A stretch of DNA of 64,000 nucleotides. Source: Cetorhinus maximus (taxonomy: Eukaryota). The notes beneath the pieces are model-generated. The model searched no databases. It was not told the origin of the DNA and saw nothing but the letters and a program-made list of their open reading frames with translations. Of the stretch, positions 1,143-63,283 are shown one piece after another (the first letter of the stretch is position 1; each line of letters starts with the position of its first letter). Location: positions 119,350,001-119,414,000 of the forward strand of contig NC_135891.1 of NCBI RefSeq assembly GCF_964194155.1. The letters are read 5' to 3'. Both the position numbers and the translations under genes were made by a program.

Positions 1143-19615
<18,473 letters not shown>

Positions 19616-19777
19616 CCTGGCGGCGGCCGAGAGGCGGCTCCGGTCCCGGGGCTGGAGCTCGGGCTGTTCCGGCTCTGGCTGCAGCCGCTGTTGTTTGGAT
19701 AGAGACTCTGACTGAGCGGAGGCAAAGGTCGCCAATCAAACACATCGAGAGAGGGAAAGAGAGAGAAGCATAGCAAC

Positions 19778-21092: not shown

Positions 21093-21329
21093 TCACGATC
21101 CCGCACACACACACTTCCTCCCAAACCTGCAAAGGAACACAACCAAAATCCGCAGGAACACAAAATCCAACCACACCTCCACCAGGAACATAACACTCAA
21201 CCCCAGAAACAGCCAGCCCCTCACCCCTCCCACCCACCCTCAACTGCATCACATCCCCAATACCCAAAAAGAACATTTGATCCCCATGTGCATCAGGGCA
21301 CTGTTGAGTGTTGATGGGATTGTTCTATT

Positions 21330-21778
21330 GGAAAGGGAGTGCAGAGGAGAGATTGGGCTGACTAGGCCCGTATTCACTGGAGTTTAGAAGAATGAGAACA
21401 GGGTCTCATTAAAATGTATAAATTCTAACAGGGCTGGACAGACTGGATGCAGCGATGATGTTTCTTCTGGCTGGGGGGGGCATCTAGAACAAGGAGTCAC
21501 AGTCTCAGGATACAGGGTATACAATCTAGGACTGAGATGAGCAGAAACTTCTTCACTCAGAGGGCGGTGAACCTGTGGAATTCTCTACCACAGAAGGCTG
21601 TGGAGGCCAAGTCACTGAATATACTTAGAAGGAAATAGATAGATTTCTGGACTCTAAAGGAATCAAGGGGTATGGGGAGAGAGCGGGAGCATGATGTTGA
21701 GATAGACAATCAGCCATGATCATATTGATTGGCAGAGCAGGCTCAAATTGCCGACTCCTGCTCCTATTTTTCTATGTC
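21330..21778 (+). mobile_element. CR1 LINE 3' fragment
   Basis: agaaacttcttcactcagagggcggtgaacctgtggaattc and CR1 3' UTR. Confidence 0.75.
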
Positions 21779-23935: not shown

Positions 23936-26900
23936 CTGAAACAAAGGAAGGTCCAGTGTTACTTCATACAAGGAATGTCAGGCAGCAAAAAGAACAAATG
24001 GCCCAGTAAACCTGGCTGACACACCAGGATGGTTGGAGCATGACCAGCTCTGCCTATCCCTCCACATCACATTCCCTCTAGAGTCATATAATCTCCTAGG
24101 AAAAGGCAAAATAAACGGGAGAAAAACCCAGAGATAATAAGGGGAAATAATAATCTGGAAAATGTTCAAGTCAGCAGCTTCATGGGAAACTCTCAAACCT
24201 TAGACAAGTACAGCCACTATAACAGAGCAAGGCAGGACAGAGCATTCCGCTTGATTGCCCTGTGGACTCGATATCCTCCATCACCCTTGCACAGTGGCTA
24301 GAGTCTGAACAAACTGTGGGATTCACTGCAGCAACTCGCCACAGTCACTGCAACAGTACTGCTTCCCGTGCCCTCCCACTGAGGATAAGGGCAGCAATGC
24401 AGTAGGAGCACCATCACCTCCCAGTCTCTCTCAGAATCAAAGAATAATATAGGACAAGGAGGCCAATTGTCCCAATGTCTTATCCAATTAGGAACATAGG
24501 AACAGGAGGCCAATCAGTCCCTCAAGTCTCTGCTATCATTCAATCAGGCCATTCAGCCCCTCAAGTCTGTTACATCAACCAAAAGGAAAGCAGCATCTTT
24601 TATTTTCAAATTTAAGATTCCAAATCCAGAGATCATGGTCTTTACAGAGAGTAGGTGGTTCTCAGGTGATCTGAATAAATTCATAAAATTGGAACGTTGA
24701 ATTCAGTGCGCCCAGCATTGACAGTGGCGAGAGTTCTTGGCCCTTCCTCCGCCTCATGTGCATGTTGTGATCACCTACCAGCGGGTTGGGCCTGAACCTG
24801 TAGGCCAGCATCATCCGCTTGCGGAATGCCTCATACTCGTCATCGTCTTTATTCAGCTCTGCTGGTCGATCGATACCAAACCCGGCTCCGTCAACTGCCG
24901 TGGTGCCTCTGCAGGCAAAAAAAAGAGAGGGAAGTGGAGAGGCTAGAGAAGCTGGCATTTATCTCCTTAAAGCAGAGATAGGTAGAAAGATTTAAAATCA
25001 AAATTACTGGGGGTTTTGAGAGAGTAAATGTGGAGAGGCAGTTTCCAGTCATAAGAAGGTTGGAAAGGGGAGAGGAGAAGAATTTTTTTTTTTTTGCATG
25101 AGCTGTTCCATTCTGGAATTAGATTGCGATTAAAAAGCATTGGATTCCGGAGGATTGACATGTGTGAGGGAGATTCCCTCCAGCTAACCCTGCAAGGAAT
25201 AACTTTGGCTGTGTTGAGAATATAACTCAGGCAGTGGCCTGATGCTGCTCGATTTCCTGCTCGAGTCTGTTGGCCATCTCGTTGTTCACACTAGCTTCAG
25301 ATGGGCATCCGAATTGGAAAATTAAAATGAGGATGGGGGATTAAAATCAGCCTCTTTGCGGGATTGGGTGGTTAAAATAACCACTCACATCCCTCCCCTT
25401 TAAACATACATTACTGGCACTTCTAAAACATGTACAACGATACTGAGGAATGCTGGTTGCAGAATGGTGTGCAGACATCTAAAAGCTCCCTCCCTTTCCC
25501 CCAGTTTAGGCAACAGAATATGGGATTATTTCATATATCAGAGCCTAGTTGGCCTACTACTATTTCAGTACCTGGGAACGGGAGCTTTGATGCCTTGTCC
25601 CTCTGAGCCCAATCCATCGCCCTCCTTCCAGCCCATTTTCATCAGCATCTGGTAACCAATGTTCTCCACAGTAATTTTGAAATCCTTGTAGTCGGAGTAA
25701 TCAGGCTCTCTCCCTTCCTGTGAAAGACAGACAAGAAAGTGTTGAAGTATTCAGACGCACGGAATAATGGCAGGGGAAGTGTGTGTGCACGCACTTCACC
25801 CCTGCGCTCACTAACCTACATCGGCACCTGGTTCAGCAACCCCTCGCTTTTAAAATTCTTATCCTAGATTTTCAAAACTCTCCACTGCCTCCCCCATTAC
25901 TATCTCTGTAATCTTCAGCCCAACAACCTTCCCAAGGTCTCTGCGCTCCTTCAATTCATATGCAATGATTTTCTTCACTCCACAACTGGCAGCAATGTGC
26001 CTTTATAAATTTTTTCTGTAGTGGGTGACTATTTGTTTACATGCATCGGCCCTTGAATTTTTATGCTCAGCCACATGTGCAGTCACTTAGAGAGGCCAAA
26101 TTGTGCGCAGCCTACGTGGGGACCTTTGGGTTGCTACACGATCATGCAGCGTGGAGGAAACATTGATTGGCAGCCAATCCTCAACAATCTAGTCCCGAAC
26201 CACTGGAATTCCCTCCATTAGCTTGTCAATCTCCCTCTCTTCTTTCCTCCAAGATATTCTTCAACATTAAAATCTTTGACCAAGCTTTCAGTTCAACTGT
26301 CCTATTTTCGCCTTAGGTGGATCATCATCAGCTATTATCTGATGATGCATCTTGGGATGTTTTTATTATGTTAAAGGCACTACATAAATGCAAGTCCATA
26401 CATTAGTGGTATGTTACATGGAATATCATAGGTGTACAGCCTGTACCTTTCTGATGTGCACTAGCTACAATCAAGGTACTGTTAGCTGTGCAGGGCCTTG
26501 CAAAAGTCACTTTTTTACTACATGCGCAAGTCCAATCCATATCAACATACTTCATCAATAGAAAAGCCTGGCTCCCCGATTAAGGCTAGCTTGAATGAAC
26601 TGAAATGGAATTGGAAAAACACAAGCGATGAACCTTTCCCCTGTCTACTGACTGTGGAGTATAGCATGAAATGAGTTGGGCAAGTCTCAATCCAGTTCCT
26701 ATTAGATATAAGCACACAGCATAGAACAGCTCCTAATATGGCCCTAAATCTCACTGTCAGAACACCAAGGCGGCTGGTGTGGAAAAGAAAATGTCACACC
26801 AATGCAGTGGGGCCCTCTTTGGAATTTGACCTGAAGCACATTTGTTGGGTCAATGTAGAGGGGGCTTTAATCTGTATCTAGCCCCATGCTGTACCTGCCC

Positions 26901-29900
26901 TGGTAAAGATAGGAAAGAGTTATTCAAAGTAGCAATAGCCATTTTCCACTTAGTATTATTTCTGGATAAGCTAACGTACCTTTAGAGCTTTGAACGTCTC
27001 CATGAATTTGTCCAGTTCATCAGGGGGTAGGAAGTCTCCAATGAAGTGCTTCCCGCGACCCATCTCGGTCAGTTGTTCTGCCCATTCTATCAAGAACAGA
27101 ACAAACCATGATGCAATATAGGCAACTAGCTGTGTGAAACACTACTAATGCTGTGCTCTTCCAAAGGCCAGATGACTTCAAGAAGTAGAAATGGGGATAG
27201 GCCAATCGGCCCCTCGAGCCTGCTCTACTATTCAATAAGATCATGGCTGATCTTCTACCCTAACTCCACCTTCCCTGACACTATATCCCTTGATAGTATC
27301 CAAAAACCTATCTCTGCCTTGAATATACTCAACAACTGAGCATCCACAGCCCTCCAGTATAGAGAATTCCAAAGATAGTGAAAAAATTTCTCATCTTAGT
27401 CCTAAATATGGCTGACCCCCATTATGAGACAGTGATCCCTCTTTCTAGACTCACCAGATAGGGGAAACAGACTCTCAGCATGTACTGTGTCAATCCCCTT
27501 AAGACAACAGAGAACATGACCAGAGGTTTTCAAACAAGGAAGAACATATAGGAATAAGAACATAAGAAATAGGAACAGGAGTGGACCATTTGGCCCTTCG
27601 AGCCTGCTTCGCCATTCACTAAGACCATGGCTGAGCTTCTTGTGTTTCGATTTCCACGTTCCCATCTACCCCGATAACCTTTTGATTCCCTTGCCTAACA
27701 AGAATCTACCTACGTCTGCCTTAAAAATATTCAATGACCCTGCTTCCACCACCGTCTGAGGCAGAGAATTCCAAAGTCGCACAACCCTCAGAAAATTTCT
27801 CCTCATCTCTGTTCTAAAAGGGCGACTCCTAATTTTAAAACAGTGCCCCCTAGTTCTGGACTCACCCACAAGAGGAAACATCCTTTCTACGTCCACCTTG
27901 TCAAGGCCATTCAGGATCTTATATACTTAAATCAGATCATCCCTCACTCTTCTAAACTCCAGTGGAAACAAGCCCAGCCTGTCCAGCCTTTCCTCATAAG
28001 ACAACCCACTCATTCCACGTATCAATCTAGTAAACCTCCTTTGAACCGCCTCCAATGCATTTACATCCTTCCTTAAATAAGGGGACCAAAACTGTACACA
28101 GTATTCGAGGTGCAGTCTCACCAATGCCCTGTATAGCCGAAGCATAACATCCTTACTTTTATGTTCAATCCCTCGCTTAATAAAGGATAGCATTCCATTA
28201 GCCTTCTTAATTACTTATTGTACCTGCATACTAACTTTTTGTGACTCATGTACTAGAACACCTAGATCTCTCTGCATCTCAGAATTATGCAGCTGTTCTC
28301 CATTTAAGAAATACTCTGCTTTTTTTGAATTCAATCCCAATTCGGTCTGTAACCGTTTTCCCCGATGTAGTATTGTCAGAGCCCTTGAAGGCAATTACAC
28401 TAAGTAGAAAGGAAGAGAAAACCTGCACTGATGACCCCAGGATGTCCCAAAGTGCTTCACAGCCAATGAAGTATGTTTGAAGCGTTGTCTTTTGGATAAG
28501 CTCAGATCACCAGAAGACTCAGCACATCTAGGCATCACCCGTGGTGATGCCACCCCGCTGGTTAAATCCTTTACAATCTGCTTAAACCTGAACCACTGCA
28601 GACTGCCATGTCCCTATGTTTATCTCTGACCTCTATAGACTGTTGTGATCTCATGTTTACCTCTGGTCTTCTCCATCTCCATATGCCGCAGACGATGTTC
28701 CCAGGTGCCAGCATCACCGTCGATTTCCTCGTCGCTGTCATACTCGTGTCTGTGATCTTGAATGGCTTTCTCCCACATCATCTGCATCTCCTGCATGGCT
28801 TGCTTGTGCTTCATGATCATGTCGTACATTTGCTGCATCTGTAAACCACCCAGAATTCACTTCAGCCATCCTGCCAAATGTCCACAGGTTGCTTCAGTTC
28901 CCTCATGTACAACCTGTCCAATATTTCTCTCCTTAAATGGTAATCTCTTTCCCTATCGCCCTGCCTGGTTCCTCTGTTAGTGCCCCTGTATAGCTCTCCC
29001 ATGCTCTCTGTAAACACCCCTACCTAATTCCTCTCCAGCTCTCTCTAACTCTGCTGGGCTGCTTCCCTATTCTGGTGATATTGCTGCACAATCCCTCTGC
29101 CTCTCTCTGTAAGTGACCCTGCCTGGTTTCTGCCCCTTTGTAAATAACACTGCCTGGTTCTCCTCTCTCTCCCTCCGTAGCTACCATTTTTCAGTGTCAG
29201 TTTCTCTCTTTCTCTGTGTCTCCCCTTCCCCATCAGCATCTGTGCCTGTCTCCTTTCTTTAGGTGATTATCACTAATATCTGTGTCCTGTATTTCTCTCT
29301 GTTGGCCTAGTGATCCTCTCTTTCTCTGGAAATGCAACCGTACACCCTCTCCTCTCTCCAAGCATCGCAGCCCACAATCCCCAGTGCAGTTCATTTCTCT
29401 AATCTTACATTAAATCAGTAGCTTCTCAAGGACAATTAGGGGATGGACAATAAATGCCGATCTTGCCAGTGACACTCATGATCCATAACTGAATTTTTAA
29501 AAAAGCTTTACTTTTAGGTCAGTTTTGGAGAGGTTGCCACGAAACGGGCGCATTTTGAAAAGCAGAAGAGGCTTCATTTCTTCAAAGCGCTAATCAGGAA
29601 GGAGTGAGCAAAGTGAGGAAAGTCAGCAACCTAGTACCAGAGTGTTTAATCAAAGGTGACTGCCTTCAGCTGACAACGCTGTAGGTCAGAATCAAAACAG
29701 GACAGAGTAATAGTGCCTAGAAACAGGCAGCCTCCAACCCCTGCTGCTGCCGCAGAAATGGTGGTGTCCTGCATGACTGCAGGGCTGCGCTCCCCTTGGC
29801 CACACCCTGCCATTAAAGATCATCTCACTGGAATTTACCTCCTGCTGTTCCTTCAACTGTTTCTTCTGTGCATCACTGAGCTCGTTGACTCCCACCAATC

Positions 29901-32900
29901 CGACCGGCTTACCTTTCTGATAGCCAAGCCCCTTCAAATCCTGAGCTGCAATCACACACACATACACACAAGAGGCATTACTTCAGCATGAGTTAATAGT
30001 TTGGCACTTAAAACAAAATTCTGGAGCCCACGTATCCCTTCACAATGGTTCGACATGACTCTGGGCCTCCACTCCCCCAGCATATAGCCCAGGCTGGAAT
30101 TTCCCATCACTTCCCTCTCCCTACAGAAAAGGAAGACAACGGGAATGTTGCTCAGAAGCAAGGCAATCGCAGCTTTCACACAGTGTCTGAAAGAACTGCA
30201 GAATCATACAGCACGGATAGAAGCCAATTCAGCCCTTTGTGTCTGTGCCAGCTCTTTAAAGGGTTAATTTCCCTCTTCCTGCTCTTTGCCCATAGCCCTG
30301 CAAATTTTTCCCTTTCAAATATTCACTGCAGTTTTCTGGTGTCTTTGCTTCCACACTTTGCTGTGTGAGAAGCATTGAGCATGAACCCAGGAACTTGCAA
30401 TCGACAGCTCACTGTGTGGAGCATTATTTGGGTGAGGTCAATCCCCCAGTGTTGCTCAGTGTTCAAAGTACCGCTAACTTTGAGCCCCGCTTCGGACCAT
30501 GTCCTCTGATGCAAAGGTTAGTGACACTCCAATTTAACCATCAATCATACAGTGATAATCCACTAATACAGAGTGCAAGAAAATGTACTCGGTACAAACC
30601 GATTGGCATAGGGAAATTGGGGTGCCAGGGTTCAGGAAGACACATGTTCAGGCTCCAACAACTGTAGCTTTAAAAAGGATGAAGGCCCTGCAATCGGAGG
30701 AGCATAGCTACCGATCAGCACAGAAGGCCACGTTCCTTTTGTACCTGAGCACCAATGTAGAGCTGACAGGGATTGTATCCCCACTACAAGAGTCAAAGAA
30801 TTTTTAACAATAGGAAAAGACCATTTGGTGCAACAAGCCCATCCCTTTCCTCACACAATGACTCCACCTATCCACTTTCTCCCCATATCTCTCAAACCAA
30901 CCTTCTTTCTCTAGAAACGTATCCACTTTCCCCTTGCACCCGTTTATACTATCCACCCTCCTTGGCACTACTGCGCCACTCTAGGTTGCACCTCAGCCTG
31001 GTCTTACCCCTGACTTTGTGCCATGGGACTGACGAGACCATTTCCTTCTTCACAGAACTTACTTGTTAAGCCAGGCACTTGCATCGATAATGCCAATTCA
31101 GGAGGAGGAAGCTCAATCTTGTCATCCTCTGGGCCCCATCGGCTCTTCTTTTTCTTTTTAAGCGAAGAGGAGGAGGAGGAAGATGAAGGTGCTGGTACGG
31201 GTGCAGGCTCGGAGGGTGAGCCACCGGAAACAGGCTCAGGAGAACTCTTCCGCTTTTGAGTGGCGGGAGAGGATATTGCCATCAAGCTGGCTTGGACGGC
31301 CTTCTGCGCAATGGTCTTGACTTTACAGAAGACTTCAACTGTGTCCCTGTAGTATCGATATGCATCGGTATTCTGCTCATACAGAAACCTACAGTGACAA
31401 AAAGAGTGTCTGGTGCTTCAGTGCTAGAGAACTGCATGCTCAGAATCACAAAGATTAACATTACAGAAGGAAAAAGGTCACTCAGCCCATCTGCTACTAC
31501 CTGTTCTCTGACGGAGTTATCCATCGAGACCCCTGTCCTCTTCCACATCCTTTAAAATTCCTCTTTTCCAAAAATTTCTCTACATCCTTTTGAAGGCGGC
31601 TCTTCGGCCCATCGTTCCTGTGTGGAAAGCTATTAGATTCTACTTCCACCACTACTGCTGATGGGGCCTCTCATATCCCAACAACCCTCTGCGCAAAAGA
31701 AAAATAATTCTCCTAAAGTCTCTGCTATCCTTGGGTGACAATATAGACTACACACCCTCTGATTTACTAACCGGTGGAAATAGTTTGGCATTTTATCTTA
31801 TCAAAACCACTCATACTTTGAGCGCCTCTATCAAGTCTCTGTTCCATGGGGCAGAATTTTATGACAGCAGGATTTTACGTTCCCGCTGTCGCCAATGGGA
31901 TTTATAACGGCCCGCCGCATTTTACAGCCCCGTCCCCGCCGAAACGGGTCGTATAATTCTGCCCATAGTCTCTCACCATAACTAAATATCTCCCCTTTGG
32001 CACCCTAAAAAAACTCAACACCCTCACCTTCACATCATTCCTAAAGTAAGGCTCCGAGACTGGCCAGAACAACAGCTTGCACTTATATAGCATCTTTGAT
32101 ATAGTAAAGCATTCCAATGAGCTTTCCAGGAATGACTATCAAACAAATTTGATATAGAGCACAAAAGGAGATATTAGAACAGGTACCCAAAGTTTGGTTA
32201 ATGAGATAGGATTTAAGGCGCATCTTGAAGGAGAGAGGTGGAGAGGTTTTGGGGGTGGTTGGGGGGGTTTAGCAGGGGATGGAATTCCAAAGCTTAGGGC
32301 TCAGCAGCTGACAGCACGGCCACCAATGGTGGAGTGATTAAAATCAGAAATGCTCAGGACATACTTAAGGGCAACAATTGGTGGCAGGGCCTTCCCACGA
32401 CGGACTTAATCAAGGCAGAGGTGGGAAGGTGGCATGATTTCCCCCCAACCCCTTACCAAGCTTCCCACAGCAGGGGCAAGGGCATTAAATTCTGCCCCAG
32501 GTGTCTTAAAGACTCATCCACAGAAAAAGTGATGAATCTATCCTTAAACTGTCTGGTCATTTATCCCAATCCTGTTTGTGGGACCTTGCCATGCACAAAT
32601 TGGCTGACACCTTTCTTACATCGAGTGAAATGGGCCTATATTCTGTGGAGTTTAGAAAAATTAGAAATCTCATTGATACCTAAGAATTAAATCTCATTGG
32701 TATATATAAAATTCTTAAGGAGCTTGACAGGGTAGATGCTGAGAAGCTGTTTTCCCCTGGCTGGACAACCTAGAACTATGGGGGTCATAGTCTCAGAATA
32801 AGGGGTCGGAAACTTAGGACCAAGAGGAGGAAACATCTTCACTTGGAGGGTCATGTATCTTTGGAATGCTCTATCCCAATGATGATGCTCTATGGATGCT

Positions 32901-35900
32901 CTGTGAATGAGTACATTCAAGACTGAGATTGATAACTTTTTCGGAAATAAGGGAACCAAGGGATATGGGATAGGGCAGGAAAGTGGAATTGAGGTAGAAG
33001 ATCAGCCATGATATTGAATGATGCAACATACTGAAGGTGACAAATGGCCTACCTAGCTCTTATTTTTTAAGTCTCTTATGTTCTAATTCCAACAGTGGCT
33101 ACAATTCAGAAGTACTTCATTGGCTGTGAAGTATTTTGGGATGCTCCAAAGGCATGAGGGGTGCTATTTAATTACAAGCTTATCTTTTCTTAAACAGCTA
33201 CAAGCCTTACAAACCAGGCAGCATGATAAAATGGTGCTTACCAGAAGGCTGGATTGTCTCGATTGTCCCGAACAGCCATCTCTTCCACGTCTGGACCCCC
33301 GTCAGCGACAAACTTCGCCAGCTTCTCAATCACACTTCGGATCTCCGGGTCCTCTGGGGGTGAAACTTTAAGCAGGCTATCAGTACTTGAGTTCAACTCA
33401 CACACCCAACAGTCAACAGCCAAACAAGGTCTACAAGATTGGATGGGTAAGAGTAGGATACAGGGAGAGCAATGGTTAAATCACACTCAAGTGGTTTAAT
33501 GGAGACAGTGTCCCACACAACTGCACTTAGCTCTCAAACCTCTGGGTGTTAACTGGTTGTTCTTTAGAGTGTTCCAAAAAATTTACGTCACTGAGACAGT
33601 GTAGAGGGAGCTTTGCTCTGTATCTAACCCCGTGCTGTATCTGTCCTGGGAGTGTTTGATGGAAACAGTGTAGTGAGAGCTGTACTCTGCATCTAACCCA
33701 ATGCTGTACCTGCCCTGGGAGTGTTTGAAGAGGACAGTGTAGTGGGAGCTTTACTCTGTATCTAACCCCATGCTGTACCTGTCCACTCTATCTAAGACTA
33801 CATATTAATTCCTCCCCTCCAATACTAATTTTTCCCTCCAACAAAACAATGCGAGGGGCAAGAGTCACTAATAAATCCAGTAAGGAATTCAGCAGAAATC
33901 TCTTTACCAAGAGAGTGAAATTTGCTACCTCAAGAAGTGGTCGAGGCAAATAGCATAGGTGCATTTAAGGGGAAAATAGGAAACTCCTTGTGGGAGAAGG
34001 GATTAGGATATGCTGACATGGTGAGGTGAAGAGGAATGAGAGAAGGGTGAGGAGCATAAACACTTGCACAGACCTCTTGGGCTTACTGGCTTATTTTCAT
34101 TCACAAATTCTAAAACAGGAGAAAATAGTAAAAAGGAGAGTACTAAGAAGAATTCGCAACCTCCTCCCATCGATGGACCATCTGTCCTGCGTCCCTTCCA
34201 TTCTCCACCCATGACCCCCACAAACTCTAAACTGTGAATCACTGTTAGTGTCACATCTTCAAACCTCATTAGCCTGTAGCTGAAAGCTAATCAGATCACT
34301 TATTAGCAAACTGGAAAAAACTTTTGTTTAATTTGTAATTACAAATGCAATCAGGTCAAAATAAAGAACTACTGTCTTAACCAGTGACACTGATCACCAG
34401 TAAGTCAACTGGTTTTCTCTTTTTGTGGACAAACGTGATTTGTGTTCCCTTAATTTAGATAGTTGAGAGGGTGATCTATTTGAGGTTTTCAAAATAATAA
34501 AGGGATTTGAGACGATAGATGTAGATAAACCATTTCCCATGGTGGGGGATTCCAGAACAAGGGGGCATAGTCTTAAAATTGGAGCTCAGCATTTCAGAAG
34601 TGAAATCAGGAAGCATTTTTTCACACAGAGAAATCTAGGACTGTCACCGCTAAAAGGTTGAGAGTCAGCTGAAATAGGAGACTGAGATGAGTAGATTTTT
34701 GTTGGGTCAGTGGTATCAATGGATATGAATTAAAGGTGGGTAAATGGAGTTAAGATGTAGATCAGCAATGATCTAATTGAATGAAGTAACAGGCTCAAGG
34801 GGCTGAATGGACTCCTGTTCCAATTAAAAGTGGGATTTCTCTGGCTGTATCTTGGTACCAACAGGTCAGAAACCTTAGTGAAAAAACTAAGAAAGAGTAG
34901 CGTCTTTGAAGGTGACAGGACAAGAAAGCTGTACAAAAAACATATGAGATCATTGCTTTTATAAATAGATGCACAGAGAATTGATGGACCTTCTGTGTTG
35001 TGCTAGTCTTTGACTCTACAGAACAGAAAAGCAAGGAAGTTATGTTAAGCTTTTGTAATAACGGGTTATGCCTCAAATGGAAGATTGTATCCAATCCTGG
35101 GCACCACACTCTAGTCAAGGCCTTGGAGAGGGTGCAGAGAAGATCTACTAGAATGTTTCCAGAGATGAGTGACTTCAGTTAAGTAGAGGGGCTGGAGGAG
35201 CTGGAGTTTTTCTCTAGAGAAAGTTAAGAGGAGATTTACTAGAGATGTTCAAAATTATGAGGGGTTTTGATCAGAATGAACAGGAGAAACTGTTTTCATT
35301 GGCAGAAGCCAGAGCACCGTAGATTCATGATTAACGGAAGAACCAGAGGTAACATGAGGAAACTTTTTAAAATGCTGTTATGATCTGGAACACAGCCTGT
35401 AAGGGTGTTGGAAGTAGATTCAATGACATCCAAAATAGATTTGGATAAATACTTGCAGGGAAATATTTACAGTGCTATGAGGAAAGAGCAGAGAGAGTGG
35501 GATTAATTGGATAGCTCTTTCAAAGGGTTAACACAGAGATGACGGGCTGAATAGCCCCCTTCTGTACAATTAAATGTTTCCAGCAAAGATTAAAGGCAAA
35601 AAGATGCACTGAACTGATTTTGCCAACATGGTTTCCCCTGTTCCAGAGGGAAGTTAATGCAACTATTAAAGTAACAAACTTGGCTTCAGTGCACAAATAA
35701 AGAGGCACAGTGTATGCATGTTCGTGGGGGAGGGGGTGTGGTTAGAGTTTCATATGGGAGGGGCTATGAGTTTGCATGCATGGGGGCGGGTGTGGATATA
35801 CTCTTTCATAGTTCAATAAACGTAAAAATTTATGCAGGATTACACCGTTCTGAAATCAACATCAGCCCTCCAGACAGAGATAGAACATGGATGCTCTACA

Positions 35901-38900
35901 GAGCTCCAACATTACCCTGAGAATGGTCTTCCACTGTGGATTCAATCTCAGAAGACATGCGTTGGTCAGTGTGCATACTGCAACTAGCTGAGGCAAAGGC
36001 TTTTTTTTAAAAAAAACAACCATCATCCAATTAAGAAAAAAAACTACTAGCTGTATTGGCTGAATTTCAATCCATTTCTGAGAGGTGAAAGGTCAATAGA
36101 ACAACCCGCTTTGGAATGCTCGGCATCATCACTGCCCTCTGAACTTTGTGCAGTTTTAAACCTTTATGCATGGGATAAGTCTTAGACAGAGATTGTCCCC
36201 TTCCGATTCCCCTACCTTTTGGCACTGATGAAGTGGTGGTGGAGGTTGGCACAGGTGGCCTGGACACCGACACCCCAGACAGTTTTTCTCGTTTGATTTC
36301 AGCCACCTTTTTCTTGTAATAAAGAAAAGCTCGGCTATTGCGATCATACAAAAACCTGCAACAAAGGTGGAAATTACGTTTAGCACCTTTCTCTTGACAA
36401 AGAAATCCCAGCTTGTGATCCCCGCAGCGTTATATAGAACGCATACTGCAAGCTTCTTACAGAGGATTTATCCACCCACATTCTTATATGCCCCATGGCC
36501 ATCAGACCAGATAAATCAGCTCCATCAGTCTGCATTTCCCTGACTGTACTACCATCAAGCAGCTCTGGAGAGCATTCAAGGGACCGGATCAGTAAACACT
36601 GGAACCGACACCAAGAGGAGCTGTAAGTACTGGCATCGATGCAGATCCTGCTCCTGTTTTATTTGAGCTGCATTATTGGCTGATGGAGGAGAGAGACGAT
36701 ACTCACGAGAAGGCGGGGTTATCCCTGTTGTTCTGAATGGCGAGCTTTTCGACTTCATGGCCCCCATCTGCTACGTACTTCGCCAACTTCTCAGCGACGC
36801 TCCGAACCTCCGGCTCCTCTGGGGGTGAAACTTTAAGCAGGCTATCAGTACTTGAGTTCAACTCACACACCCAACAGTCAACAGCAAACAAGGTCTACAA
36901 GCATGGTTGGGGGCAAGAGCAGGATACAGGAAAAGGACGGATTTAATGAAATATGAAGCCAATATTGAGAACATTTACAATGTAAAACACTCCATGCTGG
37001 CACTGAATTTGTTAATTAGAGGAGAAGATAAAGTATTCTCCTCCAACCCTTCCAATACACACAAAGGATTGCTTCCCCAATGGCTTAGCGTAGATAAAGT
37101 CAATGCTTGTTCCGTAGTAGGAACATGCAGATTCGAGCTTTCAGGTTCGATTTGCAGGCTATGTGGTTAGCTGCTCTTAACCAGGGTAGCTGAGGTGGTA
37201 GAAATGGCCTCAGAACGTCTAGGCTGGGAAAAAGAAATGTTTCCTCTCTTGATCGCTAATGGCAACCAATGTAGGGAAGAGTAAACGTGCAAAACAAGGA
37301 GAGGATCACGCTCGTCTGTGATGCTCCTAATGGCTCAATGCCTTGCAGGTACTCTATCCAGCACATACATGTCACATGACTGAGATATCAGGGAATGTCT
37401 GTGGGACTGAGCCCTCAGCAAGAGTCAGGAACATCAGGAAAGTGGGCATGAAGGCAAAAGCGGAGAAACATAATGAAACCTACTTGCTCCTAATTTTTGG
37501 GGAATGTTTTGCCAGCACATAGAGGTAGTTGTCTCCTTTCACTACAGAGCTGTTCCTTTGCTATTAGCTCCACTGGCAATTTGCTGGAGAAGTGTACTTT
37601 CCTGACCTAGCCATTGATCAGGGGCATCCAACCCAAAAAAATTCTACATTGGATTTCCATTGGCACAAAACCCATACTGAAACTTTCCCAACTTCCCTTT
37701 GGCACTACATTTATATAGCATCTTTTACGACTTCAGGATATCCCAAAATACTTCCAGGCCAACTGAAGAATTCTGAAGTGTAGCAACTGTGTAATGTAGG
37801 AAATGTGGTAGCCAATTTGGACACAGCAAGCTCCCACAAACAGCAATACAAGGGTGGGATCAGCTGTTTTACTGATGTTGATTGAGGCACGAAAGTTCCA
37901 GGACACTGAGGAGAACTCCTCTCCTCTTCTATGAATAGGTAAATTCTAACCTGTAGGAAGGATTCTTAGTCTTAATCCTTTCTTTCTGAACCTGCGGGAA
38001 TTTGCCATATATGGTCCCTGTAGGGGAGTCCATGTTTAATAATTAGTTTTAGTTTAGCTATGTGCGATTGATTTCCATGATAAAGTGTATTAATCAATTA
38101 ACTCAAAATGCAAGGCACTAGTATCACACTACATGAACCTATCTTTAGGTGCATCCGTCCTTAACAAGTGAAATGTGCCATATAGGCTTAGGCCAAAGTA
38201 AGGTTGCGTCTTATGGTTTTATTACAGGACAAGTGTTGGAGAAAACCCACTAGTACATTTTATGGCTTGATTACAGGGCAAATGTGACGTCACTTGTAGT
38301 CCAATTGTCAAAGCAAAGGCTCTGGGAAGTGGTTAACACTTATGCTGTATTCTTCTCAAAAGCCTATTGTGTGAAGTAAAACAGTTTTAGGTCTCAAGCT
38401 ACAGTTCTAAATTAAATCATTTTAGCTTTCTAACTTAAAGTGCCTTAAAGAGAAACAGTCACTTTCCTTCAAAGTATACAAAGACCTATGCCTTACTGTG
38501 GCTTTAAATGTACTGTAGTAATTTTGTAATTGCTGTATTAGTTTAAGATTGTGTACCTCTTGGACTCTAGTTTTTTTTTATAAGTAACTTGCTTCAGGCA
38601 TCAGCAGTCAATAGGAAGTCACATATAGGAGTCTGAACTTTCCAGAACACCCAAGATGTATCAATTAGGCATTTTAGGGCAATAAGCCTGAAGCATCAAT
38701 CATTAGGAAGTGACACCCTTGTAAATAAGCAGACATACAAATGACCTTGTGGTGCCTCGTTATCTTAATGGAAAGCTATAAACTTAATAAAATAACAGGG
38801 AAAATCTGCAATGAGCAGGATGCTCAGTGACCATCACCCTTAAGAGGTCAATCAGGCACTAATTAGACATCACCTAACCAATAAGGCACTGATCATGCGT

Positions 38901-48927: not shown

Positions 48928-48949
48928 ATGGAGGAGAGGTTTTGTCCAG
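48928..48949 (+). CDS. SUGP2: Putative SUGP2 first coding exon (MEERFCP-E)
   Basis: gcaATGG Kozak; 22 nt, phase 1 fits the acceptor at 54900; donor CAG|gtttgt. No homolog of the human N-terminal MAARRITQETFD exon was found. Confidence 0.5.
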
Positions 48950-51900: not shown

Positions 51901-54900
51901 AGGTTTCAGGAGGAAAATCATTTTTATGCAACTAGTGCTTCAGGGTGGTGAAAACAGATTCAATAATAACAGGATTACTCTTTGAAGGAGCTGACACAGA
52001 CTCGATATTCTGAATGGTCTCCTTCCGTGTTGTACTATTCTGTGATATATGGTTAACCACTACTTGCAGTTCCCGATCACTAAAAGAAGATATGTACTGA
52101 ATGATCTTCCAAAAATTCATACTCTATTACTAGGGAAAATGTGAAGTTTTGTGTCTTGAATGCTGTTCTTCCTTCCCTTTCCCATTCCTATTCCTAGTTT
52201 AAGATCGTTCCAGGCTGTTGAACGGTATCTATAGTATGGTTTGTTCTTACTAAATCTTGAGTAGAAAGTGATAATAGTATTTGCCTTGAAAGCAAAATGC
52301 AAATACTCACTGCTGCTCGTGTTTTCTGGTGCATCCTTTCACCACAGAACCTGACTAACTGCTCTTTGATCTTATCAGGTGAGTAAGTATAAAGTGGGGC
52401 AGTGAAGTGTGGGGAGGTGCTGGGGAGGAGAACCTCACTGACTCTCTGTTTGACATCAGGAGGCCAAACCCATACTTGGGACATCCTGTTCTGATACCCT
52501 TAACAAGGGTTTTTGTGAGAAGGGATGTTGGATTGGAGCCCACTCTCAATGAACAGCAGAGATGCACCACGTCTGAAGTGATCCTGATGCTTTTAAATAC
52601 CTTGCATGTTAAGATGCTTATTTTGAATTCACAGAACTTCCTCTTCACTTTCAGTCCTGATACTGTAATGTCCCCTTCCACCTTAGCCAAGGGGGAGTGG
52701 TTTTAACCAGAGCATCCTTTCCTTTTCTTCAGCTGTGGAGGGTGGTCCTGTGGCAGCCTCATCTGTTTTTATTTCACATGGATTTCCTTACACATTCTTA
52801 CGTCCCCCCTATTTTCCTTCTATTTCTTATGCTTCTCAGACATCTTTACAGATGCAGCAAGGGGCAGTGGTTTTCAGTCAGTCATCTCTGCATAGTAGTA
52901 CATTTTCCTTCATGATAAAGGGGTCTGACCTCTTCCTGACTTGCAATATTACTATTGCTGCTGAACAATGTGATCTTAGTAATTCCTAAATTTGATTTTG
53001 TTTTTCAGTTCTGATTCAAACAAATTACATTTAAGAGTTGGACTGAATGTGGGTAATTCATTCTTCCTTTGTCCTTGAGGACAACGATGTTTGCCAAATG
53101 GTCACAGCTTCTCCTTTGTGATACCATATTTTAATACCTTTGAGGTATCATTCCTCTGTATTGTTTTCCTGCTCCTACACCATACACTATGTTTCAGGCC
53201 TCTGCTTTTCTTCCATTGGGAGGCTGAACTTAGCTGTTCTCATTCTGGTGCATCCAATTATTCCATATCTAGGAAGGTTGACCATCTGCTGTAGCAAGAG
53301 AACTGGCAGCTTCCAAGTTAGCAACATCCTGTAAAGCTGGTGGGATTACAAGGGGTCACCCTAGAAATGTTTTAAGTCATATGCACATGACTTCCTCGGA
53401 AAAATACCAAAGAACATTTTGTAATTGTGAGAGCAACGATTGGGATTGCACACAAATGGGAGTGGCAAACTGCTGTTACAAAAGAAGCCTCCATCTAGAT
53501 ACACTCACGATATCATGGATGTCTATGTGTACCGTTGATACTGTACACAAATTGACTGCCACATTACCCACATTACAATGACTGCTCATCAAAAATGCTT
53601 CATTGGCTGCAAAATGCAATGGGATGTCCTGAAGTTATAATAGGTGCTATAGAAATGAATCTTTCTTTAATTATCAGCAATATATGCAAAACACAACTGG
53701 TCTCATAGTCATCTCTGAGCAGAATAAATTCACTTCTCCACGTATTCTCACTGAATGTTCTACCTGCACACCACCAGTGTAATTTTACGAAGGGCTACAT
53801 TGAAGATTATTATCTGCACAGACTCACCTACATTCATTTGAGCTGCCATTTTGAAAATGTGATTTACAAATGGCAAAAAGTTAGATTCACATTTTTGTCT
53901 TGGTGCCAATCAGAATGTGTTACTGAAGTGGTGAAAGGTGTCAAAGAAGTGCACCTTTTTTCCAACATTGGTGCCAGTCCACATAGGATATTTCCTACTG
54001 GAATTTTATGTTTTGAACTTGTCTTGCATATGCATAATGCAAGTGTTGCTTATATTTCCATGTCCCCTTGAAAGCCTTATCTGACTTTCCTGCTTAGTCA
54101 GCAGAGACTTCTTGAAGACCGGAAACATCATTGGGGACAAAAGGCTTTGGAGTATTTTGCAAGATCATGAACCATTCAAAAATTCTTATCCTTCGTTTGT
54201 CTGTAAGGGCTGGTTTGGATGGTGGCTCTTTAGTCAGCTACATCTTCAGCTTTTAGCCAAAAGATAAATTAAGCCACATCAATGTGTTGGACATGAAGCC
54301 ACATGAACTTGCAGCTCCTCATATAAACCTTCACAATGCTGCCTTTTGTGAGTCATAAAGGAGAAAATAATTAGCTATGGAATCTGCGCTGCTGAATTTG
54401 GTTCTAGGTGAGTGGATTACAAATGGCCAGTGTATCTTGGCTAGTATGATCCAAAATACCTATGTCTAAAATTGGCTTTTTTCAAGCTGTTTTCCTCTAC
54501 TTGAGCAAATGGGTTCATGTCAGGGCATTTCATACCTCCATTCACCATACATCCTCAAGCCCAGTGGACAAAAGATGTGAGGCGCTCTCATTGTTTAGTA
54601 TCTTGAGGAGGACACTGCACATCTCCCTTGATAGGACAAATGGTTCCTGTTTTTCTTACTTGCATCTCTTGGATTATGTTGGATTTCCCAAAAGCAGTTA
54701 GTCAGGTGCATTTTGTGGTTTAAAAAACCATCATGTCTTTCTGATCTTTGTGGCGTTATCAGCATGCCCAAGTGATCTCTAATACATTAGCTTTTACATG
54801 AAATATAGATTACAACTTTTTTAAAACATTGTTTCAATTTTAATAAAAGAAAAGCTAAACACTTTTTTTCTTCCTTTCTTCCCCCCTCTGCCATTGAAGA

Positions 54901-57900
54901 AATGCTCAACTATGCACCCAGGCGATATCCCAGGGAATCTTATGAAGAAAATACACAATACGATGGCCTTCCCTATGGTGACTATGAATCTCCATCTCAC
55001 AGATCGGAGAGATGGAGGAATATATCCAGTCAGGCAGAAATGCCTTCCGAAGATAATAGAAGATATTACGATGATGCTTCCTATTCTGCTTCAGGAAGAG
55101 AGAATTACTTGGAGCACCATGAGAGAGATGATCACCATTCACAGTATAACGAATTAAGGAGCCCCATTGAACCCAGTGGGAATCCAGGGTTGTTTGGAAG
55201 ACAAGCAAATTCCAATGACAGTCCTACCAGGAGAGGATCCAGCATCTACAGAAGATCAGTGAGCCCTATTGAGTCTAGAGATCGGTCAGGATCATACAGA
55301 AGGCAAACAAGCCCAAATAATTGGCAGTCTCGGAGTCCAATTAATGACTCAAGAGATTATCAATTCTATAGGAGATCCCAAAGTCCCAATGGCAGAGATG
55401 GTCAAAGTTTATACAATAGATCCCAAAACCCTGTTGATAAAACAGGACACTCAGAATCTCACAGGAGATCCTGGAGCCCTGGTCATGAGTCCAGGGATCA
55501 AGGATCTAACCCTAGATCTAGGAGTCCTGTTAAGGCACCTGATGCAGAGTTATACAAGTTATTAAGTAATGTTATTGATAATGCTCGGCGTATGGCGGCT
55601 AGTAAGAATGATCCCTCTCACACATCCTGGAGAGACCCATCCAGGGACTGCTCTCAAATGGATTCTTCCATTTACCAGACCACTACACCTACAGATGGGT
55701 TCCATGTAGCAGAGGATTATAACCCTCGCTTGAACCAGCACAGTTCTATTCATAAAAACACAGAAGTTTCCAGAAGGGGTCATTCTTTTTCTAAAGTGCC
55801 TCCTAAAAATACAAGAGGGCCTTTGCTTAAGCGTCCAAAGGTTCAAGGGCGACAAGGCCTTCTAGGCAGAGCCCCTGGCCTTCTCGGGGCAGCCCCTGGC
55901 CTTCTCGGGACAGCCCCTGGCCTTCTCGGGACAGCCCCTGGCCTTCTCGGGACAGCCCCTGGTCTTCTAGGAACAGCCCCTGGTCTCCTAGGGACAGCCC
56001 CTGCTGGTTTAGTGGGGCCTTCTGTGTCCAGCATGCCAGTGACCACCTACAAAAATGTTTCCACAGACTCTTCTGCTCATTTGCATCCATTGGGGAATAT
56101 ATCTGCTCTAGGTAGTCAAATGGAACTGGGACAGCAAATAATAAAATGGGCTGGTTTTCATAGTGTTGCTGTTGACCGTTCCATAAATAAATTTGACCCC
56201 AACACAGATACCTATTCTAAGGTAGCAACGGCCTTCCAGTGCTTGATGGCAAAGCAACATCAGGATATCTGTGATTCAACATTAGTGGCACATTTAGGCC
56301 TCACGTACCCTGTGATAGATAACTCTTTTGTGTCTCTGTTGATAAGGAAGAAAGTCATTGCAAGTAGGTTAGAGTTGGATGATATTATGCAGAAAGAAGA
56401 ATCTCTTTTACAAGAGATACAGAGCAAGCTGCTGGAATGCATAGGTCCACTTCTTGTAGCAAGCAGTAACCATGAGTTAAGCTCTAAGCCGCAAAGCTCA
56501 CAGACCCCTGACAACGTTGCCAGTGAGCTAGAGCAGGCGATCATAGCTTGCCGCCAATCAATGGTGTTCATTGGGCAAATCTTTGCTTTTGTCAGCGAAG
56601 AAAGAAGGAAAAATCTGTTGGAGAAGACCGGGCTGATCTCAGTGGCTCCAAAGTACGATTATTTTATGAATCTGGAAAGCAATCAGCTGTTTGGGAACAA
56701 ATACACAAATGAGCTGAAGAACCGAGTGGAGCAAATCTACCTCCCCCCATTATATAGCCAGGTTTCTTGTTCCAGTAAGTTCATGACAAAAGCGGAGGAA
56801 CAATCAAAGAATGATGCAGCAATCAAGCCCTCAAAAAGTAAGTACTCAAATCAGTCTCTGAGTTTATAATGATGCATAGCTTGAATTAAATTTGAGATTA
56901 CATTATATTCTAGCTATTATTAAAAGTTTCTATTGGTGATATTTTGAATGTGCCATAATTGAAAGGTTAAATATGATTTTATTAAAATATATTGATGTCA
57001 ATGAATTGAAGTTTCATCCCTTCTTTGCCCAGTTGCTGGCCTGGCTGGGACCTAGTGCCTCCAGCAGTTGGCTACATTGACACTTTTTCAGTGGTCTGGG
57101 AGTGGGTCTCGCGCCTGCATTCTTGGTAGCAGAAGCCCGAATGCCTTGCCGAGGAGCAAGGTTGTTGTTTCAATTTAGCTCCAAACACAAGGAAAGTTGG
57201 AACATTTCCTTTCCAATTTCCACTGTCTTGGCTTTGCTGTTTTGAGATTCCAATGTAACCTCCCGTTAGCTCACCTCCTTCCACAGAGATGGCTTGAACT
57301 GTTGTGTTTTTTTAAGTTTCCTCTTTGGCAGATGCCAAAGCAAGCAAGCAGACTGAGAAAGGTTCTTTAGCACTCACTGATGACAGTGGCATGTGCATGG
57401 CAGAGAAAGATACACCATCAGCAGCTGGTGAGAGCATCCACCCCCCAGAAGACACACAGGTCAAGACCATTATTGATAAACTGGCTATGTTTGTAGCAGA
57501 GAAGGGCGAAGCAGCAGAGAAAGTAGTCGTCCAGTACAAGAAAGAGGACTCCAAATATCGGTAAGGACAACTACAGAACGTAAGACAAAAGCAAAATACC
57601 ACAGATGTTGGAAATCTGAAACAAAAACAAAAAATGCTGAAAATACTCAGCAGGCGAAACACCACATGTGGAGAGAAAAACAGAATTAACATTTCAGGTT
57701 GTGACCTTTCATCAGAACAGTTCTAATGTTAACTGTTAAAAGGGAGGTGGTGGCATAGTGGTGTTGTCACTGGACAAGTAATCCAGAGACCAAGGATAAT
57801 GCTCTGGCGACCTGGGTTCGAATCCCACCACGGCAGATGGTGAAATTTGAATTCAATAAAAATCTGGAATAGAAAGCCTGATGACCACAAAACCATTGCT

Positions 57901-59865: not shown

Positions 59866-62800
59866 CAGATGCTGTCAGACCTGAGTTTTTCCAGCATTTT
59901 TTGTTTTCGTTTCAGATTTCCAGCATCTGCAGTATTTTGCCTTTATTTTAGAATCACATAAAGGGTCTGACAAGACTAGATAGGCTAATTTATCTAATAA
60001 TTGCCCCCTTTTAATATGAAAAAATAATAATCCTCTTAAAATAAATTTTCTTGCCAGTTCAGGGGTCTCTCGGAGCCAAGCTACTCTGCACCATCAAATA
60101 GAGATCGTATATTGAAAATACCGGATCACCATTTGAGTCAGTCTGATAGCCCATCTTCATGGTCGAATAGCTTAATAACATTTACATTTGTATACGAACA
60201 CTGTAACAGCCACTTGGGTAAAGTACAAGGCCTGTAGGTACCACAGCAAGAATTATTAGCAGCTTCAGAAGGGGAGGATTAAATTAATGATGTTAGCTAT
60301 GCCCTGGGTACCAGCATTGGCTGATAGATGTCCGCCCCCTCGACTGTAGTTAATGCCTGGCCCAGGGGATAGTAAGGAAGATAGAAAAGGGAGACTTATC
60401 TACTAATTTTTTAAATAAATCTTTATTTTAAAGGTTTTTGCTTGACACAAAAAGCAATGAATACAGGTATTACAAGCATAAAGTGGCACAGTTCTCTAGA
60501 GAAAACGCCTGCCAGTCAAGCAAACCTGGTGCTGCTGAGAACAAAGGATCAGGGTACAAAGCATCCATGGACAACACAGCAAGTGCACTCCAAAAAGAGT
60601 TCCTGATGAAAGTTGAGAATTCAAAAACATGTCCAACTACAGAAAAAGGTAGGGACAACATAACTGCTAATATAACTGTTGCAAGGAAAGGGTTAATCAG
60701 ACTGTCATGAAAGTCTATGAAAGAAAAAAAGACTTGCATTTATTTAGCACCTTTCAGAACATTCCAAAGCACCTACAGGCAATGAAATATTTTTGAAGGA
60801 CAGTCAATGTTGTAATGTGGGAAACATAGCAGTCAATTTGTGCAGAGTAAGTTCCCACAAACTGCGACTTGATAATGACCAGATAATCTGTTTTTTAGTG
60901 ATCTTAATTGAAGGATGAATACCGCTAGGACACCCACAGGGAACTCCCTACTCTTCTTCAGAGTAGTACCGTGGGATCTTTTACATCCACCTGAGAGGAG
61001 ACAGGGCCTCGATTTAATGTCTCATTTCTCTCACTATTGAACTGAAGTATAAGCCTAGAATTTTGTGCTCTTGACCTTTTGAACCCACGACCTGACTCAG
61101 AAGCGAGAGTGCTACCACTAAGCCATGGCTGACAACATTATGTTCTCCTACTATTGATTTATCCTTATATTGTAGTAATGTTTGATGATAGATATTTTGA
61201 AGGGCCTTGGGATGCTTTACTATGTTGAAGGCATTATATAAATGCAGGTTATTGTTGTTGGCCATTAGTTTTTGCCTGTTCAGGGAATTTTAAGTCCGTT
61301 TCAAATCAGGACTGACCTGCAGCATGGGTCAGCTTAGTCACCTAATTAAAAGGCCTGTTGTTGCATACTGATTCATCTTTTTCATTAGTTGATCACAATT
61401 GCAGGAAGAACAAGGGAGAACAAGTTCTGCAAGTGAGAACATTGGATGTAATCATCTTTAATTAAGGCTTCTGTAGAGGCAGGATATTGACTTCGTACTG
61501 AATCAAAAACAATTATAATGAATGCACGATGGGAGTGAAGTTATCTACTAAGATAACAAAATACAGAAGTTGTACTTGTTTTTTATTCGTTCATGGGATG
61601 GGGGCATTACTGGCTAGGCCAGCATTTATTGCCCATCCTTAATTGCCCTTGCGAATTGAATGGCTTGCTAGGCCACTTCAGAGGGCATTTAAGAGTCAGC
61701 CGCGTTGCTGTGGGTCTGGAGTCACATGTAGGCCAGACCAGGTAAGGATGACAGGTTTCCTTCCCTAAGGGACAGGTTTCGTGACCATCATTAGACTTTT
61801 TTTAAATTCCAGATTTTTTTTTTCATTGAATTCAAATTCCACCATCTGGAATGGTAGGAATTGAACTCGCGTACCCAGAGTATTACCCTGGGTCTCTGGA
61901 TTACTAGCCCAGTGACCAAACCGCTATACCACCCCCTCCCACTGCTTAAGTAAAAATAGCTCATTAAGGAAAACCAAAGTTGTTGATCAGGAATAAGTCA
62001 ATTCAGTTTTCATTATATGAGGTTGTATTTTAACAATTATAAACATGATGTAATACAGAATTGTGTTACAGAATTGTGTTTATTGTCACATAGAGGGAGT
62101 AAGAGAATTGCTGGTTTGTAATAGTATTTGGATTTGTAAATTTCTAAAATACTGAGCTCAAAATTGTGACACCTTTTGAGTCCCTCAACTTAATTAGCAA
62201 GGTGATGTCACAAGTACTGTCTGTTAAATATAGGCTTAAGCACTGCTACGTATGCTATATGCTTAATAAATCTTTAATATCCATGCTTAGAATCATCTTG
62301 ATTTGAGGAATAAATTATAAATAAGAACCCTGTCCTCTAATGTTGACATGACAGAACTGTAAGCTACAAGACTTTGTTGTCACAGTTGCCTACTCTCTCC
62401 AGAAGATGCTCAGTGTCCTTGGGGTATGGTTCCTCAAAAGCTATATGACCTCTGTGATCTTGCCATGTGGCCACTCTTCACATATTAGCCTACACCAGTG
62501 GTGGGCAACCTGCAGCTCGTGGGCCACATGCAGCCCATCAGGGTTCTGAGTGCAGCCCATCAGGGTTCTGAGTGCAGCCCATCAGACATTTTGTTGACTT
62601 GCCCACACGCAGGGTTGCCAGATTCCACTGGTTTCCATCCACGTAGTTTTCTTCCTGTGGTATTACTAAAGTGATACGCACGCAAAGCAAGGGCACATAA
62701 AGTGAGGTGCATGCTGATTGCAGACAACATTGACTGTGAGAGCCATGTGCTCCCTCTGCGTCCAATCAAAGTGCTGCTACAGTTCAATCAGCACGCCCCA

Positions 62801-63283
62801 CAAATTCTTATTCATGGGATCATAGTTAGTGCACATGCCCGATTTCAATCTTGTGGCCCACTGAGCTGAAGGAGGGCCACTCATGCGGCCCACTCACTAG
62901 CTAGGCTACCTGTCAGTGGCTTGGACAGTGAGTGCCAACAGGGTACATTAAGGTTCCAGAACCGCATTGTGGGCTTGCCCATTTCTGATTTGGGGTGAAG
63001 TCAGCCAAGGCCTGGGAGCTGGTTGGCCCGCCTTAGTGCAAGTGTAGTGTGCAAGAGGGTCCATGATGAATTAGGTGAGGCGGTGTAGTGAGAATCAACA
63101 GCAAGTTGCTGTCTTTCAGCAATTTGTGATTTCTGAAACTTAACATGTTTTTCTTGCAGATGATCCTCTCGGTGACACGAAGACAAGAACTACTGCGGAG
63201 AAGCTGGCCAAGTTTGTGGCTGAATGTGGCCCAGAGCTGGAAGAGATTGCCTTTGAAAACAATCGGGATAATCCAACCTTCTG
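48928..63283 (+). CDS. SUGP2: SURP and G-patch domain-containing protein 2, 5'-partial; continues beyond the window. Exons 48928-48949 (putative), 54900-56837, 57332-57560, 60434-60648, 63160-63283
   Basis: Large exon with GQQIIKWAGFH (human GIEIIKWAGFH) and LFGNKY (human LFGREY), followed by SURP exons in consistent phases. Confidence 0.88.
54900..56837 (+). CDS. SUGP2: SUGP2 large exon (RS/SP-rich N-terminus, GLLGxxP x7, central helical domain)
   Basis: 655-aa ORF 54902-56869; long pyrimidine tract plus gaag| acceptor; donor A|gtaagt at 56838. Confidence 0.92.
55856..56002 (+). repeat. Coding 21-bp tandem repeat, 7 copies (GLLG[R/A/T]AP), in SUGP2
   Basis: ggccttctcgggacagcccct x7 with synonymous variation. 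Confidence 0.95.
57332..57560 (+). CDS. SUGP2: SUGP2 exon (first half of SURP1); alternative in-frame acceptor at 57317
   Basis: ...HPPEDTQVKTIIDKLAMFVAEKGEAAEKVVVQYKKEDSKY(R)|gtaagg. Confidence 0.85.
58373..59949. mobile_element. Penelope-like retroelement, internally deleted, with inverted terminal repeats and a 15-bp TSD
   Basis: GIY-YIG end (HLPVACHFN...LEEQHLIFRLGTLQPSGLN) at 58928-59125(-); RT piece (QIKGVAMGTRMGPSYA) at 59172-59465(+); inverted arms ~58373-58778 and ~59459-59915; TSD agaatcacataaagg at 58358-58372 and 59950-59964. Confidence 0.85.
59807..59862 (+). repeat. (CT)n microsatellite; a shorter one at 2229-2258
   Basis: Direct inspection. Confidence 0.9.
60434..60648 (+). 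CDS. SUGP2: SUGP2 exon (second half of SURP1 and linker)
   Basis: taaag|FLLDTKSNEYRYYKHKVAQF...PTTEK|gtaggg, 215 nt. Confidence 0.88.
62496..62920. mobile_element. Possible hAT/Charlie-type non-autonomous element containing a 22-bp tandem duplication
   Basis: Starts cagtggtgggcaacctgc; (tgcagcccatcagggttctgag) x2.5 at ~62529-62585; right end degenerate. Confidence 0.4.
63160..63283 (+). CDS. SUGP2: SUGP2 exon (first half of SURP2)
   Basis: tgcag|(D)[40 protein letters not shown](W)|gtaaga, 124 nt. Confidence 0.93.

Follow-up and report, generated by a model that had tools for sequence, protein, structure and literature searches.

The window, by which we mean the whole 64-kb stretch of Cetorhinus maximus DNA analysed here, carries coding exons of a SURP/G-patch gene, and one large exon among them holds a tandem repeat beside a helical domain (Table 1). 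Protein matches identify the gene as SUGP2. A search with the region after the array returned 12 proteins among 678 candidates, all named SUGP2-like and all from sharks or rays; the best match was a Carcharodon SUGP2-like protein (P0001), 99% identical across the searched region. A wider search returned 20 proteins among 7990 candidates, adding Callorhinchus and seven bird and mammal SUGP2 sequences. P0001 has two SURP modules and a C-terminal G-patch, and the window exons match it at 93-99%. The SUGP2-specific central domain is common to the window gene and to bird and mammal SUGP2. The remainder of the gene, including the G-patch exon, lies outside the window, past its end.

Table 1. Exons and features of SUGP2 in the window
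Feature	Position	Strand	Remarks
First coding exon part, MEERFCP, then GT	48928..48949	+	tblastn of P0001
Large SUGP2 coding exon: RS-rich N-terminal region, array and central domain	54900..56837	+	AG before, GTAAGT after
Basic segment upstream of the array, with PLLKRPK	55820..55855	+	Invariant in 13/13 elasmobranch rows
Tandem array, seven 21-nt units encoding GLLGxAP	55856..56002	+	Each unit fits the refined PRI consensus
Decayed eighth unit GLVGPS, after a one-residue offset	56006..56023	+	G-L-x-G retained in most orthologues
Central helical domain, homologous by profile to ORF1 (Gag-like) of tyrosine-recombinase retrotransposons	56117..56746	+	
Next exon, SURP module 1 first half	57317..57562	+	Joined to 56837 in three runs
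Exon, SURP module 1 second half	60432..60647	+	tblastn, ends approximate
Exon, SURP module 2 first half	63159..63283	+	tblastn, start approximate

Contigs from three runs of related organisms join position 56837 to 57317 across GT..AG, a joint that is missing in a fourth, DNA-like run, and exon contigs of the three runs span the array with seven units. These three related-shark runs are RNA by guess, none being recorded as RNA, and the joint is read as a sign of splicing in related sharks. Because of this joint, and because the exon contigs cross the array, the repeat appears to lie within a spliced coding exon. An alternative donor within the exon, near 56776, was rejected in favour of the joint observed. 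The frame of the large exon stays open for 10 codons beyond the donor, to a stop (56838-56869), and the RNA-guess runs hold contigs that read through the intron up to 57316; a truncated SUGP2 isoform lacking SURP and G-patch is possible. A second SURP/G-patch gene, which we take to be SUGP1, has exons at 24791-36834 on the minus strand, head-to-head with SUGP2, and the pair suggests a local inverted duplication. Two long minisatellites, non-coding in look, with long open frames on both strands, occupy 19500-21400 and 13097-13783.

The array reads GLLGRAP GLLGAAP (GLLGTAP)x5 in the frame of a 686-codon open stretch (54809-56869). TRF gives it a period of 21, 7.0 copies, 92% matches and zero indels, and with the in-frame translation this bears out the claim of the first-pass annotation that seven PRI-type units stand here. 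All seven match [S/G][I/L]LGxxP, the PRI pattern, and they are its only matches in all six frames of the window. Compared with the majority unit, the window units show seven distinct base changes, five synonymous (codons 1-4) and two non-synonymous (both at codon 5), so that the synonymous variation with G-L-L-G-x-A-P kept, as originally described, is confirmed; three of the units are identical at the DNA level. Across the 3.99-Gb genome a degenerate DNA pattern for GLLGxAP-GLLG has six matches, all six within the SUGP2 array (the reversed pattern, run as a control, has one), and the array is the sole tandem of its kind in this genome. It is rich in Gly and Pro and is flanked by the RS-rich region on one side and the helical domain on the other, in an exon without a Pfam domain. 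The basic PLLKRPK segment just upstream may be a nuclear localisation signal.

Distribution and origin of the array

How widely is the array shared? The survey of repeat number across vertebrates that the first-pass annotation had proposed gives 6-11 units in each of 13 elasmobranch proteins (the window gene and 12 others) and no array in any of 46 other SUGP2-like proteins, chimaera included (8 from the wider search and 38 from a profile search). Four of these 46 non-elasmobranch rows begin too near the domain to inform on the array. Of the 46, 22 were looked up and 21 named, covering a mammal, reptiles, amphibians, lungfish and coelacanth; ray-finned fish and human SUGP2 lie outside this set. 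One of the 46 has a single PRI match, inside a folded domain. Where sharks read RGLLGRAP, the chimaera reads RGFQGRGN and then continues without repeats. Judged by these proteins, the array is a shark-and-ray innovation and not an ancestral feature lost in mammals. Because of the chimaera sequence, parsimony would place its origin on the elasmobranch stem, a 21-nt segment having probably been duplicated locally there.

The suggestion that human SUGP2 retains a degenerate remnant is accordingly weakened, since the array is already missing in the chimaera and in all lobe-finned vertebrates examined, and the motif that amniotes do have lies elsewhere and lacks Pro. This motif, [IVL]L[GS]D[FV], occurs in 11 amniote rows of the 58 scanned (P0014 169-177, P0143 169-177 and nine others), in the N-terminal region, further upstream than the array. 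Its [IVL]LGD[FV] form was considered as an array remnant and rejected for lack of positional homology; it may be a leucine-pair docking motif in its own right. Salamanders possess several diverged SUGP2-like copies, some sharing one chromosome (P0157, P0158, P0160, P0165, P0170, P0176, P0178).

The adjoining central domain

The central domain that follows the array is 32% identical to the armadillo and bird SUGP2 domains, with 45 invariant columns in 8 rows and a tblastn E of 7e-34. A profile of these 8 rows retrieved 57 proteins. They comprise SUGP2-like proteins, RRM proteins of sharks that resemble Matrin3/ZNF638 and have this domain at their end, and ORF1-like proteins. Among the last, P0187 (E 4.9e-13) is named Tyrosine recombinase and has a weak integrase match at its end (E 0.004). 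Profile-profile comparison of the domain with ORF1 gave 98.6% at E 7.6e-16, with template rows that were drawn from the profile-search hits and so are not independent. On the strength of these profile matches, the SUGP2 central domain is homologous to ORF1 of DIRS-type (tyrosine-recombinase) retrotransposons.

The domain matches no Pfam family and has no meaningful solved relative by sequence, and its Atlas cluster contains 25% PF11560 members at 0.91. Its structural model is weak (pLDDT 59.5), and Foldseek returned nothing at E 0.001, with 2v0x at E 4.1 only. In a tree of 30 domain rows the branching order of the SUGP2, Matrin3/ZNF638-like and transposon branches is not settled. An ORF1-like domain also stands as an intact open frame at the end of shark ZNF638-like and Matrin3-like RRM genes (L018, G000:C1:245565421-245565741; L019, G000:C10:79977029-79977364), and these may be further domestications. 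A known parallel is the LAP2alpha domain of TMPO/ZNF451 (PF11560; PMC4495291), which is likewise helical, encoded in one large exon and homologous to DIRS-like ORF1. The SUGP2 domain differs from it in being internal, constitutive as far as seen, common to sharks and mammals, and without a PF11560 score in the Pfam copy used. No paper joining SUGP2 with DIRS or LAP2alpha was found in the literature searched.

Constraint on the units and candidate partners

Why would a repeat of this kind be kept? The refined PRI consensus is [S/G][I/L]LGx[AVP]P. The groove between the helices of RRM2 takes up Leu2-Leu3, and residues 3-7 lie packed against Tyr247 and Tyr193; Gly1 is allowed and found in the high-affinity PRI1 (core GLLGAPP), position 5 is free, and changing Pro6 to Ala lowers binding very slightly, while a polar residue 6 costs 7-fold (PMC3420021). 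The window units match the published consensus, including this refined form (PMC3420021), and the identification of PRI-type motifs by the first-pass annotation holds at this level. Shark units meet every PRI sequence rule, and the position at which they vary is the wildcard. The proven strong motifs have Pro6, which no array unit does, all seven window units having Ala6. A consensus match does not ensure binding, and context can weaken a perfect core, which argues against PTB docking: the GLLGAPP core bound about 10-fold less in the PRI4 context, and two of the four Raver1 PRIs are weak (PMC3420021). The same source counts 36 human proteins that match the consensus, Raver1 and Raver2 with two sites each.

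Near-matches to the unit arise freely in the C. maximus genome. Unrelated 21-bp minisatellites encode GLLHTAP (150 copies) and HLLGTAP (24 copies), each one residue off the unit, and no strict PRI match was found in the three minisatellite loci examined. They lie at G000:C8:62.82-62.83 Mb (L022-L025) and G000:C6:0.72 Mb (L021), give these heptads in one frame and have open stretches of several hundred codons. A composition-based chance figure of 4e-6 to 7e-6 per heptad repeat was dropped as too optimistic given these near-matching loci.

We consider it somewhat probable that the SUGP2 repeat is a selected, low-valency, predicted PTB-docking array of PRI-consensus motifs, specific to sharks and rays. 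In eight sharks, all 61 units fit [S/G][IL]LGx[AVP]P with Ala6, and the sole variable position, the wildcard 5, takes six residues (T 35, A 12, R 11, and V, N and I once each). None of the seven distinct changes among the window units hits a core residue, against 57% expected by chance (36 of 63 possible; P about 0.003). Within the array, the related runs show at least eight differences, six synonymous and two at codon 5; when the window units are pooled with the related-run differences listed, 0 of 9 distinct changes hit the core (P 0.0005). This test is post hoc and counts few events, its related-run part covering the listed differences (at least eight), and its direction is clear: selection appears to hold six positions of the unit and free the fifth.

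The five batoids have 40 units, of which 30 fit the consensus. Decay of units 6 and 7, with loss of the leucine pair, is common to all five and probably goes back to a single event on the batoid stem; these decayed units retain Pro7 in 10/10 and Gly4 in 9/10, and constraint on the array is thus partly on Gly/Pro spacing. Drift of the orthologous repeats away from LLGxxP, named in the first-pass annotation as counting against docking, was looked for, and 91 of the 101 units in the 13 proteins keep the consensus.

Could the array be a low-complexity segment without a partner, its Gly/Pro-spaced hydrophobic repeat serving as a flexible linker or as a sticker for self-association, and its PRI match being incidental? 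Batoid units overall, which hold Pro7 in 40/40 and Gly4 in 39/40 even where the leucines are lost, would suit such a segment, as would the lack of inter-unit linkers and the varying copy number. A sticker, however, should tolerate replacement of L by I/V/M/F and of A by G/S, and neither is seen among the shark units (61), whose position 5 does change between charged, polar and apolar residues. We regard this explanation as unlikely.

A docking array requires a receptor, and a TIGR01649 profile search of the C. maximus genome found three PTBP-like genes, where a Pfam PF11835 search found no PTBP exon. The RRM2 exons of the three paralogues keep LFYP/MYYP and LDGQNIY. That of the first gene shows no difference from shark PTBP1 proteins and can be aligned with human RRM2 structures, 3ZZY among them; the PTBP1 RRM2 contacts Tyr193, Leu241, Gln244 and Tyr247 correspond to Y196, L244, Q247 and Y250 in shark PTBP1 P0027. 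The Matrin3-like gene of the same genome keeps GILGPPP. By the criterion of these conserved residues, the PRI system is intact in Cetorhinus maximus. Complex prediction for shark PTBP1 RRM2 (P0027 181-290) with a 35-residue four-unit peptide gave ipSAE values of 0.34, 0.07 and 0.12, the median below the mark, and counts neither way, peptide queries being unproven for the tool and the runs having no folded controls.

Human SUGP2 co-precipitates PTBP1, MATR3 and hnRNPM and binds long introns (10.64898/2026.06.30.735655), and SUGP2 is enriched on LINEs with MATR3 and PTBP1 (10.1101/297853). Because of this co-precipitation and these shared LINE-rich introns, PTB would be the natural candidate partner of the array. 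The Matrin3 PRI is proven by mutation (PMC4365034) and lets PTB and Matrin3 share one RNA (10.1101/297853). The main text of PMC4365034 does not name SUGP2 among the proteins pulled down with RRM2. It also speaks against PTB docking that chimaera and lobe-finned SUGP2 work without such a motif.

Selection might instead maintain docking on a different RRM within the PTB/hnRNP L/Matrin3 group, or on some other nuclear protein, with the leucine pair in a similar groove. The RRM2 domains of hnRNP L/LL bind the SETD2 leucine pair at nearly the same surface (10.1101/2021.05.22.445248), the Matrin3 PRI is needed for an event that is PTB-independent (PMC4365034), and sharks have extra Matrin3/ZNF638-like RRM proteins. 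Nevertheless, the grooves discriminate, since LLPTP, the peptide that hnRNP L prefers, is not bound by PTB RRM2 (10.1101/2021.05.22.445248), and the array units agree with the PTB consensus at each of its six fixed positions; a different partner is, in our estimate, quite unlikely. Very unlikely is a neutral coding minisatellite whose apparent conservation reflects homogenisation by unequal crossing-over, a reading that similar 21-bp minisatellites outside genes, the three DNA-identical window units, two decayed batoid units and a faster turnover than elsewhere in the exon (of the 23 differences listed in the run X5 exon contig, 7 fall in the 147-nt array) would favour, but homogenisation is blind to codon position, the persisting changes are synonymous or at codon 5 only, and the first unit, GLLGRAP, is fixed in all 13 shark and ray proteins.

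As a PTB-docking array, the repeat would likely bind the helical back face of RRM2 of PTB-family proteins. In each unit Leu2-Leu3 would fill the groove between the two RRM2 helices and Ala6-Pro7 would lie on Tyr247/Tyr193, leaving the RNA face free. How many PTB molecules could be held at once? Because the units follow each other without linkers and the S-shaped seven-residue core wraps the whole domain, two or three RRM2 domains would probably fit, a figure reasoned and not computed, and not seven; a seven-fold valency loses ground on the same two counts. PMC3420021 does not decide whether a single scaffold can bind more than one PTB molecule. Surplus units would raise apparent affinity through rebinding, so that a motif weak by itself would serve as a stable tether. 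The array would likely keep PTB and SUGP2 together on long LINE-rich introns and help silence cryptic splice sites, as Matrin3 does by means of its single PRI. A link to helicase activation is also weakened, human SUGP2 being reported to repress splicing and intron excision largely without DHX15 (10.64898/2026.06.30.735655). Both seven simultaneous PTBs and the helicase link are doubtful.

A more tentative extension, which we hold to be possible but on balance not probable, is that SUGP2 of sharks and rays acquired a multivalent array dedicated to PTB capture, hard-wiring a contact seen in humans as LINE-rich-intron co-occupancy only. Beside the retrotransposon-derived domain, one exon would then join a tamed transposon protein to a scaffold that silences transposon-derived splice sites. 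If PTB docking is true, minisatellite duplication gave rise to a short linear motif that became fixed in a single vertebrate lineage, and the poorly studied SUGP2 is tied directly, at the molecular level, to the network by which PTB and Matrin3 silence introns. How far this reaches is limited, the array being confined to sharks and rays and the docking predicted. The array is also a ready series for avidity and stoichiometry, since it comes in 6-11 copies, takes seven different residues at position 5 and includes decayed units.

Comparison with known leucine-pair motifs

The literature searched, mostly without subscription papers, yielded no description of PRIs in SUGP2 or of PRIs arranged in tandem. 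In known PRI proteins the motifs number one to four and stand apart from each other; the SUGP2 array is a natural tandem, the densest PRI run that we found described (6-11 tandem units against four dispersed ones in Raver1). The PRIs of Raver1/Raver2 (PMC3420021; PDB 3ZZY, 3ZZZ) resemble the array in their seven-residue consensus and in their variation at position 5. The Raver motifs share a single disordered stretch of a nuclear protein that processes RNA, and the SUGP2 array may lie in a comparable setting. In Raver1, however, the four motifs are dispersed and the two strong ones lie about 135 residues apart, whereas the putative docking array sets its units without linkers, has Ala6, belongs to a SURP/G-patch protein and is restricted to one lineage.

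The Matrin3 PRI, GILGPPP (PMC4365034; 10.1101/297853), offers a likeness of purpose, in that the array too would tie PTB to a co-repressor on LINE-rich introns, which human SUGP2 also binds. The Matrin3 motif is single, invariant across vertebrates and mutation-proven; that of SUGP2 is repeated, lineage-limited and predicted only. GLLGDAP of CSTF2/CSTF2T, a predicted PRI (PMC3420021), is identical to the array units at the six fixed positions, but it occurs as one copy in a 3'-end processing factor and is itself a prediction. The SETD2 SHI motif shares the principle of a leucine pair docking on the back of an RRM2, in that case of hnRNP L/LL; its sequence, LLPTP, has no Gly4 and does not bind PTB RRM2 (10.1101/2021.05.22.445248), whereas the array units do have Gly4.
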